A stretch of DNA of 61,753 bases from Escherichia phage vB_EcoS_SA126VB (OL960573.1), one strand, 5' to 3'; counted from the first letter of the stretch, positions 41,730-59,973 are shown. Notes: generated by a model not told the origin, from the letters alone. Numbers and translations are program-made.

Positions 41730-42644
41730 TTAATCTAAAGCCTGATCAGTTTCATCGCGGAAATGCATAAAGTTTGCAAAACGCGGTTTATCTTTCACGC
41801 CATGAGGGAAGTGTTTATATGAAATAGTCCGACCTTTAATTTTGTCAGGGTTATTCCAATAATAAATCTTATCCTCTTGCGTTAGTTTACCAGGACTAAC
41901 GTTGATTGTATTGCCCGTCTTAACGTCTTTACAAACCAACGTCCCGATCATACCGTTAGGAACTTTATTTTCCTGATGCGAAGATCGTGTAGTCCTGCCC
42001 AGCTCGTTAACAGTAGCTTCATTAAGGTTAGTTTCACCCTCAATAATATCAAGGACAATAGCATCTTCCTGAATAAAGCGTTTAATACGAAGATATCCAC
42101 CTTCACGAACTGTGCCGCGCCCATGTTTATAAGGCTTGTCAGGATCGCGGATAATAATACCTTCATAACCAATATCAAGCCAGATGTTTTCCCAGTAGAG
42201 CAGCTCTTGTAAAGACTTAACCACATACATTGGGACAACTTGCAGGTCGAGCAATTCGCCTTTAGCGTGCTGTGTGGTTATAAAGTCTTTCATCATGTTG
42301 TAGCGTGCTTCATAGCCCAGCTCTGCAACACTTTCCGCGCACAGATCAAAGATGTGCCATTTCAGGAACGGTTCACCTTCAATTGTGTTTACCGCACTGG
42401 TTGTTTTACGGCACAGATCTGGATCTGTTTCTACACCTGCTGCGAGCTCGCCGTCATAGCCCATGTACTGGGGACCGCTGAAAATTGCGCTTGTATGGCG
42501 GTTTTTAAACAGCTTTAAGCTTCGCCCTACTATCTGCCCGTCCGGATTTAAACCGCGCACACCGTCGATTTTAGGCAGTATGCAGCACGGAAATTTAATC
42601 TTTTCTTCAACCGCGTCAGTCGCTAAATGTGGTTTAAAAGTCAT
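41730..42644 (-). CDS. ATP-dependent DNA ligase
   Basis: 304 aa; adenylation motif I KIDGVRG. Confidence 0.75.
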   Translation of the reverse strand: MTFKPHLATDAVEEKIKFPCCILPKIDGVRGLNPDGQIVGRSLKLFKNRHTSAIFSGPQYMGYDGELAAGVETDPDLCRKTTSAVNTIEGEPFLKWHIFDLCAESVAELGYEARYNMMKDFITTQHAKGELLDLQVVPMYVVKSLQELLYWENIWLDIGYEGIIIRDPDKPYKHGRGTVREGGYLRIKRFIQEDAIVLDIIEGETNLNEATVNELGRTTRSSHQENKVPNGMIGTLVCKDVKTGNTINVSPGKLTQEDKIYYWNNPDKIKGRTISYKHFPHGVKDKPRFANFMHFRDETDQALD

Positions 42645-43147
42645 AGAGGTCTTTCACTCCCGTGGTTTTGGTTAAAGTTATAGTCACGTTCTGCTTGTTT
42701 TCGAATACGAACAGCTTCATTGAAATTTTCAAAATATCCAAGAAATTTTTCTTTTCTGTTAATCCGTATATAAGCTCTCCATTTACCTCTCTTTTTGCAC
42801 CAAAGCACTCCAACTTGACCGCTTTTGTTATTAGCTGGTTTGCGCCTATTACACGCATTAACTTGATGCGTAACAGATTTTAAATTTGTGCGACGGTTAT
42901 TTAACCCATTTCCGTCATCATGATCAATTTCTTCAGGTTCTTCATCATAGAGCATTTTCCAGATTATACGATGTGCTTTATATAATACTCCATCAATACG
43001 CAATACTAGATAGCTTTTACCATCCGGTTGCGTTACAACAGTACCCGCAGGTTCCATTGTTTCATAACGAATTAAAATACCTGTCTCTTCGCAATAATAG
43101 AATAAACTGTCTAAAATGTCTTTATCTGGTGTTCCTCGTATATGCAT
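42641..43147 (-). CDS. HNH homing endonuclease (HNH_3 plus AP2-like domain)
   Basis: IDHDDGNGLNNRRTNLKSV HNH core, AP2-like KSGQVGVLW..GKWRAYI; ATG 43147 with GGAGGTGA RBS (track start is TTG). Confidence 0.7.
   Translation of the reverse strand: MHIRGTPDKDILDSLFYYCEETGILIRYETMEPAGTVVTQPDGKSYLVLRIDGVLYKAHRIIWKMLYDEEPEEIDHDDGNGLNNRRTNLKSVTHQVNACNRRKPANNKSGQVGVLWCKKRGKWRAYIRINRKEKFLGYFENFNEAVRIRKQAERDYNFNQNHGSERPL
42935..42976. repeat. 42-bp exact repeat, copy 1 (inside HNH gene)
   Basis: aggttcttcatcatagagcattttccagattatacgatgtgc is identical at 47482-47523; encodes AHRIIWKMLYDEEP on the minus strand. Confidence 0.9.
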
Positions 43148-43152
43148 AAATA

Positions 43153-43656
43153 TCACCTCCAATAATATTTACTCTTTATTTGTTGAATAAGCTCTTTACA
43201 TTGAAGGATCCTAATCTTGCTTCTCTCAAGTCTCATTGCGTGCCGAGCTCTTTGATCGCAAAATCTTTGGGCTTTACTACGCTGGTCCTGATTAGCTGTA
43301 TGACCTTTAACGTGGCGGAACTCAATAGTAAGATTATATTTACGCAATTGATCGTTCAACCATTTGAAAGCTACACCTTCCTGTTCACTTTTCCAGCTCG
43401 CTTCTTTATACACTTTAATAGCTGTTGAACAGTCTGTTTGCACAATTAAATGATCACCTGGATGGATTAATTTAGCCTTCATTCCCTCCCAAATAACATT
43501 ACAGATTGCCATTGTTTCAGCTGCATTATTATCAGGAGCTCCACGTAACGGTCCACCGTTAGCGTTATTTCCACGGTTGCACACTACCCAGCCACCGTAT
43601 CCAGCGGCTTTTGTATTTGGACAAAAACTTGCATCAGATATAATTGTTACTCGCAT
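43153..43656 (-). CDS. ribonuclease H
   Basis: 167 aa; RNase H-like DASF..E..D..H pattern (SDASFCPN, AAETMAI, VQTDCSTAI, VKGHTAN). Confidence 0.6.
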   Translation of the reverse strand: MRVTIISDASFCPNTKAAGYGGWVVCNRGNNANGGPLRGAPDNNAAETMAICNVIWEGMKAKLIHPGDHLIVQTDCSTAIKVYKEASWKSEQEGVAFKWLNDQLRKYNLTIEFRHVKGHTANQDQRSKAQRFCDQRARHAMRLERSKIRILQCKELIQQIKSKYYWR

Positions 43657-43664
43657 AATAACTC

Positions 43665-43691
43665 CTGTTAAAAAGGGGCTTTCGCCCCTTT
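43665..43691 (-). terminator. rho-independent terminator upstream of RNase H gene
   Basis: AAAGGGGC-tttc-GCCCCTTT followed on the minus strand by UUUUUAAC. Confidence 0.65.
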
Positions 43692-43697
43692 AGTTTA

Positions 43698-44465
43698 TTA
43701 CAGTTTGTCTTTGAACTCTTCGATATATTGCTCAATCGGGTACTGCTTACGCTTGAAACGATCAAACAAGATTTTAGCAGATTCTACGTCTTCGTCGCTC
43801 TCTTTACTTGCGCCCGGTGCCATAAAATCACGCCATGTAAAACCGTTCAGATTATGCATCTTAGCAATGTGTTTATTGTAACGACTTTCCCAGTCAATAC
43901 GCTGAGCACGACCATGGATCTGAGCTGGCGGAATAGCGCGTCCAAGAACTTGCACATAAGGTCCGGTTTTAAACTCAACAACACTACCGTTAAGATCTAC
44001 ACCATCCGCAAAGTTGTGTAGCATAGTTTCAATAACGTCATTCAATGTTGGAACCATCACTTTTCCCTGAGCAATACCTGCCAAATAACCGACGTTTTCT
44101 TCACCGTACAACTCAATCAGTTCTTTCTTGGTCGCTTCTGCTTCTTTGTTTGCGAACAAAGCCAACATCTGTTGTTCGAACATGTGCTCCTGTTCCAGGA
44201 AGTGAGTATATCGCTCTTCATCCACTTTGCAGACAATCCATTTGTATTCAACATCCTTGCTGAAGTCCGGATACTGATCTACTTCTACTACTTCCGTAGT
44301 AAAGAACTTGCCGTTATATTGAATAACAACTGTATCGCCCGGCTGTAATTCGTCGCTTTCCAGGGCACGGTAGGTATAAAGACGACCACCTGCTTCAAAC
44401 TTAACTTTGACAGTTACAACACCTTTTAACAGGGCATGATAAGCTTTCTGAAATTCTTTACGCAT
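43698..44465 (-). CDS. hypothetical protein
   Basis: 255 aa, AAGAGGAAA RBS. Confidence 0.5.
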   Translation of the reverse strand: MRKEFQKAYHALLKGVVTVKVKFEAGGRLYTYRALESDELQPGDTVVIQYNGKFFTTEVVEVDQYPDFSKDVEYKWIVCKVDEERYTHFLEQEHMFEQQMLALFANKEAEATKKELIELYGEENVGYLAGIAQGKVMVPTLNDVIETMLHNFADGVDLNGSVVEFKTGPYVQVLGRAIPPAQIHGRAQRIDWESRYNKHIAKMHNLNGFTWRDFMAPGASKESDEDVESAKILFDRFKRKQYPIEQYIEEFKDKL

Positions 44466-44507
44466 TTTTAGTTTCCTCTTGGGCGGTTGATCCGCTCGTT
44501 AATGTGG

Positions 44508-44918
44508 TTAAGCTTTATTTGGAACAATTTCCAGTGACGCAGATCCAACTTTAGATTCAACGCACTGGTTAAAGACTGCGGCTTGCTCCGCTGTAAGTTT
44601 ACGCCAAGCCGCAACTTTCAATACAGGTTTATTTTCCACAAGCAGATCAACGTTAACACCAACTTTAATCAGATCGCCCAGGATTCCGTTAAGGCTTGGA
44701 AGATCAATCTTACGATCAATCTTGTGGGTCATTTTCATAACCCCGCCAGTAATTTCAACTTTATTAGTCCCCTCAGACGGCGCTGGGAAATAGGACTTAA
44801 TGATCTTATCACGGAGTGCTCGCTCGCGAGCTTGAAGCTTTTGTAATTCTGCTTTGGTTTTATACCACTCAATAACATCTGCTTCGGTTGCTTGTACTGC
44901 TTTATCTGCGTCGAACAT
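44508..44918 (-). CDS. hypothetical protein
   Basis: ATG 44918 with AGAGGA RBS; track start 44978 is TTG and overlaps the predicted promoter. Confidence 0.45.
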   Translation of the reverse strand: MFDADKAVQATEADVIEWYKTKAELQKLQARERALRDKIIKSYFPAPSEGTNKVEITGGVMKMTHKIDRKIDLPSLNGILGDLIKVGVNVDLLVENKPVLKVAAWRKLTAEQAAVFNQCVESKVGSASLEIVPNKA

Positions 44919-44950
44919 TTTTCTATCCTCTGTTGTGTTTCGATGTATGT

Positions 44951-44978
44951 ATAATAGCACATCCATGTGACAGGGCAA
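44951..44978 (-). promoter_or_regulatory. sigma70-like promoter (TTGCCC-16-TGcTATTAT)
   Basis: Minus-strand -35 TTGCCC (44978-44973), extended -10 TGcTATTAT (TATTAT = 44956-44951), about 25 nt upstream of RBS/ATG 44918. Confidence 0.35.
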
Positions 44979-45159
44979 GACTCAATCTGTATCAATTAAT
45001 CTTTTTAAACGGATTAGTAATCTAGCAACCTTCCTCCATTCAGCATCCTCCATTAATGGTGAAGGTTTATACGCTTCAGGTATCGGACAAGGTATATAAG
45101 GTTCCATGTCAGATATTACTTGCTTTGATAACTTTTTCTTCCGTTTACCCATAAATAAC

Positions 45160-45747
45160 CTATTTTAAATAACGGGAAGTCATAATTGGGTGCAGAGACA
45201 CTTCTTCCTCTGCTGTAACCACATTGGCAGACGTTCCAGTAGACCCGAAACCATTGGCACCGCGCTCAGTAGTTTTAAGCTCGTCTACTTCTACCAGTTG
45301 CACGCAAGGCACCTTAATAAGCATAGCTTGCGCAATACGATCACCATGTTTAACTGTAAAACTACCATCGTTATCAATAGTAATCTTAACCTTAACTTCC
45401 CCAGTGTAGTCGCTATCAATGACGCCCACGCAGTTTGCTAGACGCACGTCGTTTTTGAATCCGTGTCCGCTACGGGAATAGACCATAAGCGCGTAACCTT
45501 CAGGAATATCAAACGCTAACCCTGTGCGGAATATATGCTCGTAAGAGAAAATAATTTGTTCACATCCATCTTCACTCTTAAGATCCGCGTGCAGGTCAAA
45601 GCAAGCTGCTCCCGCACTGGCAAACGATGGCAGGATTGCGGTGTCCGTTAAGCGTTTCACCCCGAGAAGAGTTGGCGCAAAGGATGTAGCAGTTACGCTA
45701 GAATTAGTTATAGAAATACTGTGCATGTTATTTAATACGTCAGTCAT
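45160..45747 (-). CDS. dut: dUTP diphosphatase (trimeric dUTPase)
   Basis: Motifs AGACFDL, YSRSGHG, GVIDSDYTGE, DRIAQ, RGANGFGSTG; AAGGTG RBS. Confidence 0.8.
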   Translation of the reverse strand: MTDVLNNMHSISITNSSVTATSFAPTLLGVKRLTDTAILPSFASAGAACFDLHADLKSEDGCEQIIFSYEHIFRTGLAFDIPEGYALMVYSRSGHGFKNDVRLANCVGVIDSDYTGEVKVKITIDNDGSFTVKHGDRIAQAMLIKVPCVQLVEVDELKTTERGANGFGSTGTSANVVTAEEEVSLHPIMTSRYLK

Positions 45748-45759
45748 AATTTCACCTTA

Positions 45760-46224
45760 TTAAGAGTATGTACCTGTTTGAACAATGTGATTAATAGCAT
45801 GTGCTCTGAAGATTTCTCTAAAATCTTCAAGTTCTATTGTAGCACGAATTGGCTCCTTTTTAATATAATGATTGAACTCATTAATATCAAAGACGGAAGG
45901 GTTCATACATATAACAACTTTCCAACCCGCTCTAGGAATCTTATACATTAAGACTGGGATTTTATTACATTCCTGTGCAGACTTAACAGTTTGCTTCCAC
46001 CATGTGTTAACAGCAAGAGTTGCATGGTTTTTGATCTCTACACAATATTGGCAAGTATTATCAATATCCGCACCACCTACAGCCGATTGATTTTGTCGCC
46101 TTTGTGCAATAGGTTTAGGTGGTAACGGTTTACCAATAAGCTTATGCACTTCCGCATAAATATCGTTGAAAAAATCGCAAGCTTCCCTTTCAGCTCTCTG
46201 ACCTTTTTGCCGTATGTTGACCAT
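45760..46224 (-). CDS. putative Holliday-junction resolvase-like nuclease (Hjc/PD-(D/E)XK-like)
   Basis: KGQRAERE plus DIDNTCQYCVEIK (D..E.K) pattern; ATG 46224 with AAGGAA RBS. Confidence 0.4.
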   Translation of the reverse strand: MVNIRQKGQRAEREACDFFNDIYAEVHKLIGKPLPPKPIAQRRQNQSAVGGADIDNTCQYCVEIKNHATLAVNTWWKQTVKSAQECNKIPVLMYKIPRAGWKVVICMNPSVFDINEFNHYIKKEPIRATIELEDFREIFRAHAINHIVQTGTYS

Positions 46225-46702
46225 GATTTGCAAATTCCTTATGTAGTTCCAATCTTTTAGTTCTAACCCAAGCTTTAGCAGCTTGTAAACCTTCAGGTGT
46301 AAGTTCAAAATACTTTGATACCAAAACACCTTTTACATGTAAGTTTGCATAATAGACTTGAATGCCATTATGTTTTGTAATAGTTACGCACTTAACACCA
46401 GTCTTTGAGTCTTTACGAATAACCATATTATAATTGTTCTGTGAACGATCAGCCAGTCTAAGATTTTCTATTCTGTTATCATCTCGAACTCCGTTAATAT
46501 GATCAATTATCTTGTCTTCAGGAATATCACCATTGAAGTATTGCCATATTAACCTGTGAGCGAAATAAAATCTCTTATCAATTTTACCTTGAATGTAACC
46601 GTCCTGACGTTTTGTACCAAATGGTCTTTTATTATAACCGTTTTTATTTCTTTGAAATAATTTGCCATCTATATAAATAAAGCGATCGTTTACATTGATC
46701 AT
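46190..46702 (-). CDS. HNH homing endonuclease (HNH_3 plus AP2-like domain)
   Basis: IDHINGVRDDNRIENLRLA HNH core; ATG 46702 with AAAGGAGG RBS. Confidence 0.7.
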   Translation of the reverse strand: MINVNDRFIYIDGKLFQRNKNGYNKRPFGTKRQDGYIQGKIDKRFYFAHRLIWQYFNGDIPEDKIIDHINGVRDDNRIENLRLADRSQNNYNMVIRKDSKTGVKCVTITKHNGIQVYYANLHVKGVLVSKYFELTPEGLQAAKAWVRTKRLELHKEFANHGQHTAKRSES

Positions 46703-46750
46703 GTTTACCTCCTTTATATGTATTTTAATATGAAGTAAAATCAATCTCAA

Positions 46751-46781
46751 TAAAAAAGCGCAACGTTTTCACGCTGCGCTT
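46751..46781 (-). terminator. terminator upstream of HNH gene
   Basis: AGCGCA ... TGCGCT imperfect hairpin followed on the minus strand by UUUUUUA. Confidence 0.5.
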
Positions 46782-47086
46782 AGTTTAAATAAGGTACTTG
46801 ACTATTCAGCTTCCCTTATTTCCGGTAAATTGTACAGCCTCGCCAAAGGCTGGTGACGGTTTGGTACATCTGGCGCCGTCGCGTTGAACATCGTTCACAT
46901 CGTTCAGTAAGTTGCGGGTTTACCCTGTCCGCTCCAGGAAGCCCAGCGAAAGTAGTTGCTGTAAGGAGGTACAGCTACCGCTTTCAAGGGCTTGAATTAA
47001 GCATCGTTCACTAAGTTAATGTTGTTAAATTGTTAAACCTCGTTAACTGTGGTTATCTTAAAGGATGCAGTCTTGAATGGCAAGCT

Positions 47087-47404
47087 TCAATTTTGCGCGG
47101 TTCCCTTTGCCGCTTTTGGTGCTAAAGTACCATCATTTAACATCAACTCAAAACCTGTTACTTGATCGGTTGGAACAATAGGGTAATTCATGATAGCCAT
47201 GTGGATACAACCCCCTCCATCACATTCGTCGATGTATTCACTACCCCAATAGTATAAATGACCATCTCTTCGAATATCCATTGCTGTAGGGAAATCTACA
47301 AGAATTCTTTTGATTTCTTTTCGTCCTTCTTTATGCAGATTAGTTTCAATACGGATAAGCTCCGCATAAATTGCTTCACAGATAGTGTTTACAATACTCA
47401 TCAT
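47087..47404 (-). CDS. hypothetical protein
   Basis: 105-aa ORF with ATG start. Confidence 0.45.
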   Translation of the reverse strand: MMSIVNTICEAIYAELIRIETNLHKEGRKEIKRILVDFPTAMDIRRDGHLYYWGSEYIDECDGGGCIHMAIMNYPIVPTDQVTGFELMLNDGTLAPKAAKGTAQN

Positions 47405-47748
47405 TTACCCCTTAAGTTTTGAATCATTCTATCACAGGCAGCTTTTACAGAAGAATTTTGCCAGTCTTCCTCAATTTGTGAAGGTTCTTCATCATAGAGC
47501 ATTTTCCAGATTATACGATGTGCCAGATAATGAAGACCGTCTAGACCAACAAGAATATAAACGTTTCGGTCTTTAACAACAGCGCGACCAGCTTCTTTTC
47601 CTGCGAACTGAGAGTTGAATTTGGAACAAGCTCTTTGTGTTTTAAAGAACTTTAAAGGCGCTTTCTTCCATCTTAAAATGCCAGTCTCTTCATTATACTC
47701 AAAACGATCATGCAAATAGTCAAATGAAGGTAAAGGTCTAAATTTCAT
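47401..47748 (-). CDS. truncated, degenerate HNH-endonuclease-like paralog (possibly non-functional)
   Basis: Shares YNEETGIL and AHRIIWKMLYDEEP with the 42641 HNH gene; catalytic IDHxDGN replaced by IEEDWQN; no AP2 domain; ATG 47748 with weak RBS. Confidence 0.4.
   Translation of the reverse strand: MKFRPLPSFDYLHDRFEYNEETGILRWKKAPLKFFKTQRACSKFNSQFAGKEAGRAVVKDRNVYILVGLDGLHYLAHRIIWKMLYDEEPSQIEEDWQNSSVKAACDRMIQNLRGK
47482..47523. repeat. 42-bp exact repeat, copy 2
   Basis: Identical to 42935-42976. Confidence 0.9.
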
Positions 47749-47989
47749 AATATTACCTATAACCAATAAAAGAACCAGAAATAACCAGCTACGAAAATAG
47801 CACCCGCAAATAATTTTAAAAGTTCGAACATTGTTCCCTCCGTTAACTTTATGCTGTAAGTATAGCAGGACTTGCGATGTATGCAACAACTTTAGACTTG
47901 AAATACATCTATAAAATAGCACGATTTGCCTTTACCTTTGATCCGTCTAGCTGTACTATTAACTCATAAACAGAGCGGAGGATTACAAA

Positions 47990-48214
47990 ATGGTCATGCT
48001 GAATAAAGTATATAGCACAATGGGCGCGGATTATAAAGTTGTACGTCACCCGCGTACTGGTAAATTTGAAGCATACATCCGTCCAATGGGTGAAGGTTGG
48101 ATGTATTACGGTACTTATGATGACGCTGAGCAAGCTTATAAAGAAGCGGAAAGTGTAGCGGAAGCATCCGAAATTATGGCAAGGTACGACGTCGATGATT
48201 ACTACCTTAACTAA
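47990..48214 (+). CDS. small rightward gene embedded in the leftward block
   Basis: 74 aa; GGAGG RBS 9 nt before ATG; strong terminator immediately downstream; overlapping minus ORF 47909-48217 judged spurious. Confidence 0.45.
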   Translation: MVMLNKVYSTMGADYKVVRHPRTGKFEAYIRPMGEGWMYYGTYDDAEQAYKEAESVAEASEIMARYDVDDYYLN

Positions 48215-59481: not shown

Positions 59482-59973
59482 ATGGAATGGTCTTCCATAT
59501 TTACTTATTTGGATGGAAAGCTGTTCTGGAAAACTTCTAGAGGTGGTAGAGTTATACCAGGAGCACTTGCTGGTCATGCTACAAAGAGGGGTTACGTTAA
59601 AATACGATGCGGTTGTAGTTTCTATCTAAGGCATCGCATAGTATGGGAAATGCATAATGGTTCCATTCCCGAAAATATGCAAATAGATCATATTAATCAC
59701 GTTCCTGGAGATGACAGGATAGAGAATCTTAGATTAGTTACAAGTACATTAAATAATAGGAACGTAACCAGATCTAAGCTTAATAAGTCTGGTGTTACTG
59801 GTGTTTGCTATCACAAAAGAAATAAAAGATGGATAGCTTATATTAATACACAGGTTGGTCAAGTAAGACTTGGCTCTTTTATTAATTTTGAAGATGCTGT
59901 CAATGCTCGTAAAAATGCTGAGATTGTATATGAATACCACGAGAATCACGGAACTGAACGTAAGAGTTTTTGA
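59482..59973 (+). CDS. HNH homing endonuclease (HNH_3 plus AP2-like domain)
   Basis: IDHINHVPGDDRIENLRLVT HNH core; AP2-like KSGVTGVCYHKRNKRWIAYI; ATG 59482 right after previous stop. Confidence 0.7.
   Translation: MEWSSIFTYLDGKLFWKTSRGGRVIPGALAGHATKRGYVKIRCGCSFYLRHRIVWEMHNGSIPENMQIDHINHVPGDDRIENLRLVTSTLNNRNVTRSKLNKSGVTGVCYHKRNKRWIAYINTQVGQVRLGSFINFEDAVNARKNAEIVYEYHENHGTERKSF

Follow-up and report, generated by a model that had tools for sequence, protein, structure and literature searches.

A truncated HNH endonuclease gene in a Seuratvirus genome: probable fusion to a resident gene at a microhomology and gene conversion of a block shared with other HNH genes

How does a phage genome come to hold two HNH-type genes that share 42 identical nucleotides within poorly matching surroundings, and how did one of the two lose its catalytic motif? 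These questions are raised by Escherichia phage vB_EcoS_SA126VB (OL960573.1), whose 61,753-nucleotide (nt) sequence was analysed whole and is called the window below. A search of the window located the 42-mer AGGTTCTTCATCATAGAGCATTTTCCAGATTATACGATGTGC at 42935-42976 and 47482-47523 with 0 mismatches, and re-inspection of the two copies found them identical, as the original prediction for this DNA had stated. Both are on the minus strand inside open reading frames (ORFs), in frame and encoding AHRIIWKMLYDEEP; the first lies in HNH1 (42641-43147), an intact HNH_3 gene, and the second in an ORF of 115 amino acids (aa) at 47401-47748. By chance 0 copies are expected, and none appeared in 100 dinucleotide-preserving shuffles; the window contains no third site at up to 3 mismatches. 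The repeat stretches to 53 nt at 94% identity. A DNA alignment of HNH1 with the second ORF displayed a sharp island of identity with a poor match around it, and a codon alignment gave 42/42 matches in the island and 76/171 (44% DNA identity) in the N-terminal part. The original prediction took the second ORF for a degenerate paralog in which IEEDWQN stood in place of the catalytic IDHxDGN and a stop came early, and read the repeat as a sign of recent duplication or gene conversion. We favour, with a probability of roughly 0.75, a history in which this ORF arose as a chimera of a different HNH gene (HNH2) and an unrelated resident gene by recombination at a microhomology, while the shared block was homogenised by gene conversion.

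The region 41700-48300 matches 36 phage records, nearly all of them Seuratvirus (Queuovirinae; CAjan, Seurat, slur01, VogelGryff, Dru_SM1 and others), and by these matches the window is a Seuratvirus (CAjan/Seurat-like coliphage) genome. The best matches are ~94-96% identical and cover only 62-84% of the region, indicating insertion/deletion differences among relatives. At the place of the second ORF, a small gene is present in CAjan and ~25 further Seuratvirus records; it consists of 65 codons and a stop (198 nt; product MSEQLFNIALQSIVDTAKQAYIEGYNQCLISAAYSPEEPSQIEEDWQNSSVKAACDRMIQNLRGK), and its product in CAjan (AJT60546) ends ...SPEEPSQIEEDWQNSSVKAACDRMIQNLRGK. At the same place Salmonella phage STP-SP5 carries HNH2, a full-length 184-aa HNH_3 gene starting MKFRPLPSFEYLH..., and so does L012, a metagenomic Seuratvirus contig (ERZ1034925 NODE-71). 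In a three-way alignment of the window, STP-SP5 and CAjan, the ORF is HNH2-like from its ATG (47748) to GAAGAACCT and CAjan-like from there to its stop. The HNH2-derived segment (codons 1-89; 47482-47748, minus strand) differs from L012 HNH2 at 3/267 nt (47744, 47503 and 47493). The tail SQIEEDWQNSSVKAACDRMIQNLRGK with its stop (47401-47481, minus strand) corresponds to the 3' end of the conserved 65/66-aa gene; these last 26 codons (SQIEEDWQN...RGK) differ at 1/81 nt from CAjan and at 2/81 from L019, a 59-kb Logan contig. The stop is the resident gene's own and overlaps the ATG of the conserved downstream 105-aa gene (47087-47404, minus strand; sequence AAATGATGAGT). Within that gene, past the junction, the window shows 3 differences from L019 and 12 from L012. 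L019, which combines an HNH1 ortholog with an intact 65-aa gene, is by its sequence a recipient-type genome.

Because the tail matches the 3' end of the CAjan gene, IEEDWQN is native resident sequence and not an altered catalytic motif, and the supposed early stop is the native stop of the resident gene. That the second gene keeps an N-terminal half and lacks the catalytic motif was correctly seen, except that the catalytic half had been replaced by the resident tail, not point-mutated. Taken together, the alignments identify ORF 47401-47748 as a recombinant of the front half of HNH2 and the tail of an unrelated gene.

The chimeric ORF has no Pfam match, so that it does not qualify as an HNH_3 gene with catalytic His and Asn; it aligns to positions 1-81 only of a 169-position family hidden Markov model (HMM), and the family-invariant residues D93, H94, N102 and N118 all lie past the junction. 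A tblastn search with the HNH2 C-terminal half detected no trace of it at 47000-47500 in any frame, and hence no intact HNH motif concealed in another frame near the second copy. Full-length HNH2 (P0001, 50-sequence alignment) was modelled by AlphaFold with a predicted local distance difference test score (pLDDT) of 95, comprising the HRIIWKMLY helix (76-85), the IDH strand (92-94) and, at the C-terminus, three strands plus a helix (132-174). According to this model, only the N-terminal sheet and the HRIIWKMLY helix would be kept in the chimera, which is, as far as sequence can tell, the dead remnant of a homing endonuclease gene. For annotation this is a trap, as what looks like a degenerate HNH paralog is half an endonuclease gene joined to a resident tail. 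No full-length relative of the chimera was found among 5.8 billion proteins, an exact-product look-up returned no called gene on record, and an exact search of IMG/VR for the junction TATGATGAAGAACCTTCACAAATTGA gave 0 matches. One candidate relative, P0002 (123 aa), was rejected as an over-extended annotation of the 66-aa gene.

The position of the junction suggests how the two genes were joined. In the two parents, L012 HNH2 and the CAjan 66-aa gene, TGAAGAACCT is identical and TGAAGAACCTnnnnAAATTGA agrees at 18/21 nt, and both genes read this microhomology in the same frame, as E-E-P. In the window it reads TGAAGAACCT-TCAC-AAATTGA (47471-47491, minus strand), with the exact 10 nt at 47482-47491, on the 3' edge of the 42-mer. 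It is the top ungapped local match between the two parental genes (score 15), and a score of at least 15 was reached in 15/1000 codon shuffles and 8/1000 mononucleotide shuffles (p ~0.01). With each parent matched on its own side and their best microhomology at the switch, these findings point to a microhomology-mediated (illegitimate) crossover. The EEPSQIEED patch that served as microhomology is missing from P0005, a small-gene variant of 67 aa.

We envisage that an L019-type genome (HNH1 plus the small gene) and an L012-type genome (HNH2 in the slot) recombined, and that the exchange was homologous on one side and ended at the microhomology on the other. A crossover on TGAAGAACCT(n4)AAATTGA, which happened to be in the same frame in both parents, would yield an in-frame fusion that keeps HNH2 codons 1-89 and loses both the beta-beta-alpha-metal catalytic core and the AP2-like DNA-binding domain. 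The remnant would thus have been made in one step, not by point-mutational decay.

The identity of the two 42-mers calls for a second process. Within the 42-mer, the HNH1 gene of L019, the HNH2 genes of L012 and L020 and both copies in STP-SP5 read AAG...AAT, whereas both window copies read AAA...GAT. The window copies therefore match each other at 42/42 positions, and each matches its ortholog (L019 or L012) at 40/42, differing at the same two positions. Relative to L012 HNH2, the remnant differs at 1/225 nt outside the 42-mer and at 2/42 inside it, and both inside differences (47503 and 47493) are the HNH1 state. Since two independent identical substitutions are very unlikely, the window copies appear to have been homogenised, in keeping with the original suggestion that gene conversion was involved, which the block identity and the shared AAA/GAT states both support. 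The STP-SP5 paralogs carry a private variant (CGC ATT ATT ... AAG ... CTT ... AAT) and match each other at 41/42 positions and the window copies at 35-36/42; L020, which has no HNH1, carries the same HNH2 variant. In both genomes with two copies, in-genome paralogs are thus closer to each other in the tract than to their orthologs. HNH1 is the more likely donor, because it differs throughout from its L019 ortholog (95.7% nt identity, 22/507 nt differing) and the remnant does not differ in this way from L012 HNH2.

The HNH1-type patch spans at minimum 47493-47503 and at maximum 42 nt, and lies 2 nt from the exact microhomology (47482-47491). A single repair event may have produced both features, its template switching from HNH2 to the HNH1 block and on to the resident gene; otherwise, a later conversion could have been limited in extent by the only homology left. 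The conversion would be of a short-tract, non-crossover kind between non-allelic copies, either within the genome or between co-infecting genomes, and the AAA/GAT patch suggests to us an exchange inside this genome. A break made by HNH2 may have started the recombination, an idea that comes from the way homing endonucleases work. Among the genes of the phage are AAA_24 (Sak4-like), DUF669 and PDDEXK_15, from which it could presumably build a recombination machinery of its own. As direct repeats 4,547 bp apart, the 42-mers are also placed such that a crossover between them would delete the RNase H, dUTPase, PDDEXK nuclease and HNH3 genes and others, and would build a full-length hybrid of the HNH2 N-terminal half and the HNH1 C-terminal half.

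The 42-mer makes up the 5' portion of a longer block of 60-90 nt (HRIIWKMLYDEEPEEIDHDD...), of which the HNH1 copy forms the first 42 nt. We compared the HNH genes with this motif (family A), which occupy four sites in Seuratvirus genomes: a helicase/exonuclease site (alpha; SA80RD, slur01, VogelGryff, L013), a RusA-like/dUTPase site (beta; SHIN8, Skure, KS_A3, L014), the RNase H/ligase site (gamma; window HNH1, L019, STP-SP5) and the slot beside the primase gene (delta; STP-SP5, L012, L020 and the window remnant). On either side of the motif, proteins of the different lineages are 28-53% identical and their flanking DNA 42-52%, while the ~60-nt block CAT CGT ATA ATC TGG AAA ATG CTC TAT GAT GAA GAA CCT GAA GAA ATT GAT CAT GAT GA is 80-100% identical. 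Between gamma and delta it reaches ~84-90 nt (82/84 for L019 HNH1 against L012 HNH2). For amino acids shared between two lineages, the codons agree in 655/855 cases in the block (77%) and in 1183/2417 in the flanks (49%). In the outgroup phage Bas96 the HRIIWKML and IDHDDG residues are unchanged, yet just 3-8 of 12-14 such codons are shared. Across the wider family, aligned as 50 sequences, conservation is confined to H77, R78, P89, D93 and H94, and block residues 82-88 (KMLY[D/N]EE) are conserved at just 6-38%. Given these variable residues and the codon divergence of Bas96, the block is not explained by constraint on the protein or by a nucleotide constraint that holds universally; the pattern indicates that it is kept near-identical by short-tract ectopic gene conversion among non-allelic copies.

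The block is narrowly distributed. A blastn search with a 72-nt block query matched 10 of 50,697 phage records, nine of them Seuratviruses and the tenth Bas96, weakly (76.9%), and a degenerate back-translated pattern matched 1 IMG/VR locus (slur01) and 3 metagenome loci, including L012. The repeat is real, and its exactness is in part not peculiar to this genome, the block being 39-42/42 identical in Seuratvirus HNH genes at other sites. We also considered the block as a crossover point for module shuffling and did not find support for this, since identities between lineages fall within 28-53% on both the N- and the C-terminal side and show no clear discordance; the sole hint is the comparison of window and STP-SP5 HNH1 (37% N-terminal, 53% C-terminal).

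Several points weigh against our reading. The junction of the chimera is known here from assembled sequence. The evidence for conversion comes from two genomes with two family-A copies (the window and STP-SP5) and from two informative sites in the 42-mer, and AAA/GAT is also the prevailing variant among other coliphages, in their alpha and beta lineages. HNH1 differs from its L019 ortholog at 6/89 nt in the block and 16/418 elsewhere, which is not a significant difference, and a conversion running from HNH1 to the remnant is only likely. The HNH2 donor may already have carried AAA/GAT, or the conversion may have come from a third phage.

This last point leads to the best-surviving alternative, which accepts the chimera and attributes the 42/42 identity to an HNH2 allele that already carried the common coliphage variant through exchange between co-infecting phages at the population level; we give it something under one chance in five. 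The window 42-mer matches SA80RD and slur01 at 41/42 positions and SHIN8 at 39/42, all at other sites, and over a 60-nt block starting 3 nt into the 42-mer (at CAT) window HNH1 and L014 agree at 60/60. All sampled HNH2 orthologs (L012, STP-SP5, L020) nonetheless have AAG/AAT, as do the other genes at the HNH1 site (L019, STP-SP5), the HNH2 part of the window is otherwise 224/225 identical to L012, and gene conversion would still be required, merely elsewhere. Improbable by comparison is the proposal that the nucleotide sequence of the block is itself functional, as an endonuclease recognition or nicking site, a regulatory site or an RNA element, and is held by selection with no need for conversion. 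Its synonymous sites are indeed conserved far above the flanks. Two variants, however, co-vary within genomes (the STP-SP5 type and the coliphage type), the Bas96 outgroup retains the amino acids with randomised codons, and beyond the two HNH ORFs the 42-mer is nowhere else in the window with 3 mismatches allowed; RNA structure was rejected outright, as no signal was obtained (z = -0.09).

Slightly less credible still is an assembly artefact joining reads from two co-occurring phage variants. Both parental slot types exist in nature, and the chimera is in no other record by junction search of IMG/VR, protein search or product look-up. Against this, exact identity of the parents at the junction is limited to 10 bases, fewer than usual assembler k-mer lengths; had reads been mis-joined through the 42-mer, the sequence would lead into the HNH1 3' half, which is not observed; and the fusion is in frame with the stop/start overlap with the next gene kept. 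Finally, recent intragenomic duplication followed by point mutation of IDHxDGN to IEEDWQN and an early stop, to which the shared AHRIIWKMLYDEEP from an identical 42-mer and a superficial similarity of the next residues (EEIDHDD vs SQIEEDW) lend some appearance, is refuted by the CAjan and L012 alignments, as the repeat flanks are 44% identical, the genes belong to different site-specific lineages, the tail is 1/81 nt from an unrelated conserved gene intact in ~26 Seuratvirus records, and full-length HNH2 in L012 and STP-SP5 differs from HNH1 throughout.

Beyond the chimera with its converted patch, we offer a bolder and rather doubtful extension, in which the block would be no mere passive result of conversion but a handle for recombination, common to a guild of mobile HNH genes: copies at separate sites and in separate co-infecting phages would overwrite each other's catalytic core, and template switching at the block edges would sometimes make new joints with resident genes. 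If this were true, the decay expected for homing endonuclease genes would be delayed, and the chimera would have come as a side product of a process by which new insertion sites are also seeded.

The remnant sits in a hypervariable slot beside the primase gene, at 47401-47756 in the window. The slot is bordered on the left by the last codons of an ORF for a 24-aa hydrophobic peptide (MFELLKLFAGAIFVAGYFWFFYWL; 47757-47831, minus strand) and on the right by the 105-aa gene, and it holds at least 7 alternative cassettes across Seuratviruses: a 66-aa gene in CAjan, 72-aa and 66-aa genes in Greed, 85-aa and 108-aa genes in Dru_SM1, an 84-aa gene in VogelGryff, a 71-aa gene in KS_A3, HNH2 with a 137-aa gene in STP-SP5, HNH2 alone in L012 and, in the window, the fusion of the HNH2 5' half with the tail of the 66-aa gene. 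HNH2 is also in the slot of L020. Related genomes thereby document three allele states: the empty slot, the intact endonuclease gene and the dead remnant. Adjoining the slot is a conserved Seuratvirus protein of 74 aa (47990-48214, plus strand) with a sub-threshold AP2 match (Pfam E = 0.024) and a match to the AP2-like part of the HNH family HMM (E = 0.018); it may be what is left, as a separate protein, of the DNA-binding domain of an endonuclease. A ~94% DNA-identical stretch is also present in the unrelated 84-90 kb Salmonella phages SWJM-02 and SPJ41.

A family HMM scan of all six-frame ORFs of the window returned exactly four HNH-family ORFs, three intact and one remnant, and no fifth copy. 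The original count of four HNH genes was therefore right, with the second being the remnant. Judged by the Pfam gathering cut-off for HNH_3 (PF13392; 24.8 bits), HNH1, HNH3 and HNH4 all pass, at 39.2, 74.9 and 69.8 bits. The description of HNH1 as an HNH_3/AP2 gene is borne out for HNH_3; its AP2 match, like that of HNH4, is sub-threshold (17.6 and 18.2 bits against a cut-off of 33.3). HNH1 (minus strand, 168 aa from its ATG) lies between the RNase H and DNA ligase genes, with its stop overlapping the ligase ATG, and a TTG upstream of the ATG is probably not the start. The L019 ortholog and a distant version in STP-SP5 occupy the same site, at which CAjan and L020 have no HNH gene. RNase H is 167 aa long in the HNH1 carriers (window 43153-43656, minus strand; L019) and 207 aa in CAjan (L021, 1020-1643), with a different C-terminal tail; the comparison indicates that the HNH1 insertion coincides with a replaced 3' end of the upstream RNase H gene.

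HNH3 (46190-46702, minus strand) and HNH4 (59482-59973, plus strand) belong to other HNH_3 lineages without the block. For the HNH3 region, only Dru_SM1, VogelGryff and OddieOddie gave matches covering 98% or more of the query; SA80RD matched part of it (62%). HNH4 was found in slur01, SHIN8 and SLUR26/76, and its site is ~480 nt shorter in CAjan and most others. All occupied HNH sites are thus polymorphic for presence or absence among close relatives, a patchy distribution typical of what we predict to be free-standing homing endonuclease genes. Beside HNH3, the PDDEXK_15 ('RusA-like') nuclease allele at 45760-46224 (minus strand) has full matches only in the HNH3 carriers Dru_SM1, VogelGryff and OddieOddie, other Seuratviruses having a different allele; to judge from this pattern, the flanking marker may have been co-converted along with the endonuclease gene. 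HNH3 and the 105-aa gene are separated by ~315 nt of non-coding sequence (46768-47086), of which 46830-47086 is 98-99% identical in ~30 Seuratvirus genomes, exceeding the conservation of neighbouring genes. Minus-strand folding of this intergenic region gave z = -2.16, with 1/100 shuffles as good, and tRNA and Rfam scans of it gave no match.

With respect to known systems, HNH1, HNH3 and HNH4 resemble the free-standing phage HNH homing endonuclease genes of the HNH_3 type in passing the HNH_3 profile with a D-H...N...N core, in lying between conserved genes and in occurring sporadically among near-identical genomes. The chimera, its catalytic motif entirely gone, is not a member. The Seuratvirus HNH genes are known here from sequence and from a predicted model, and the structural likenesses of the latter are weak: the best nuclease match of the HNH2 model by Foldseek is I-HmuI of Bacillus phage SPO1 (PDB 1u3e; 117 columns, template-modelling (TM) score 0.37, E = 0.03), and its C-terminus matches a plant AP2 domain (7et5; probability 1.00, E = 0.09, root-mean-square deviation 1.3 A over 39 columns).

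Homing endonuclease genes pass through a life cycle of invasion, fixation, decay and loss. The remnant resembles the stage of degeneration, its catalytic half lost while intact and empty alleles coexist in the population, and differs in that a single recombination would have fused it in frame in place of gradual decay or clean deletion. The sharp island of identity in diverged paralogs, the homogenised synonymous sites and the derived states shared by in-genome paralogs and lacking in orthologs are as expected of concerted evolution by ectopic conversion. What differs is the setting, in which mobile genes placed at four sites in a population of lytic phages exchange very short tracts (42-90 nt); given this mobility, block exchange probably also takes place between co-infecting genomes. 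Mobile HNH genes at four Seuratvirus sites would in this way share a nucleotide-identical core via very short conversion tracts, which bears on the persistence or death of homing endonuclease genes in lytic phage populations, and such patches can mislead phage phylogenetic trees and inferences of 'recent duplication' from repeats.

The novel joint between unrelated genes at a microhomology (10 nt exact, 18/21 overall) resembles those of illegitimate recombination in phage mosaicism. A review of group I introns appeals to such recombination to explain how free-standing endonuclease genes reach new contexts (PMC3984707); the event described here, in contrast, destroyed an endonuclease gene and moved none to a new site. 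In the library searched, no direct precedent turned up in work on Seuratvirus homing endonucleases with the HNH block or chimera, or on phage HNH paralogs that evolve in concert or by gene conversion. The kinds of event are nevertheless already known, namely HNH homing genes and their decay, loss by illegitimate recombination, and concerted evolution; what is new is this example of them, an instructive but ordinary case of phage genome mosaicism.

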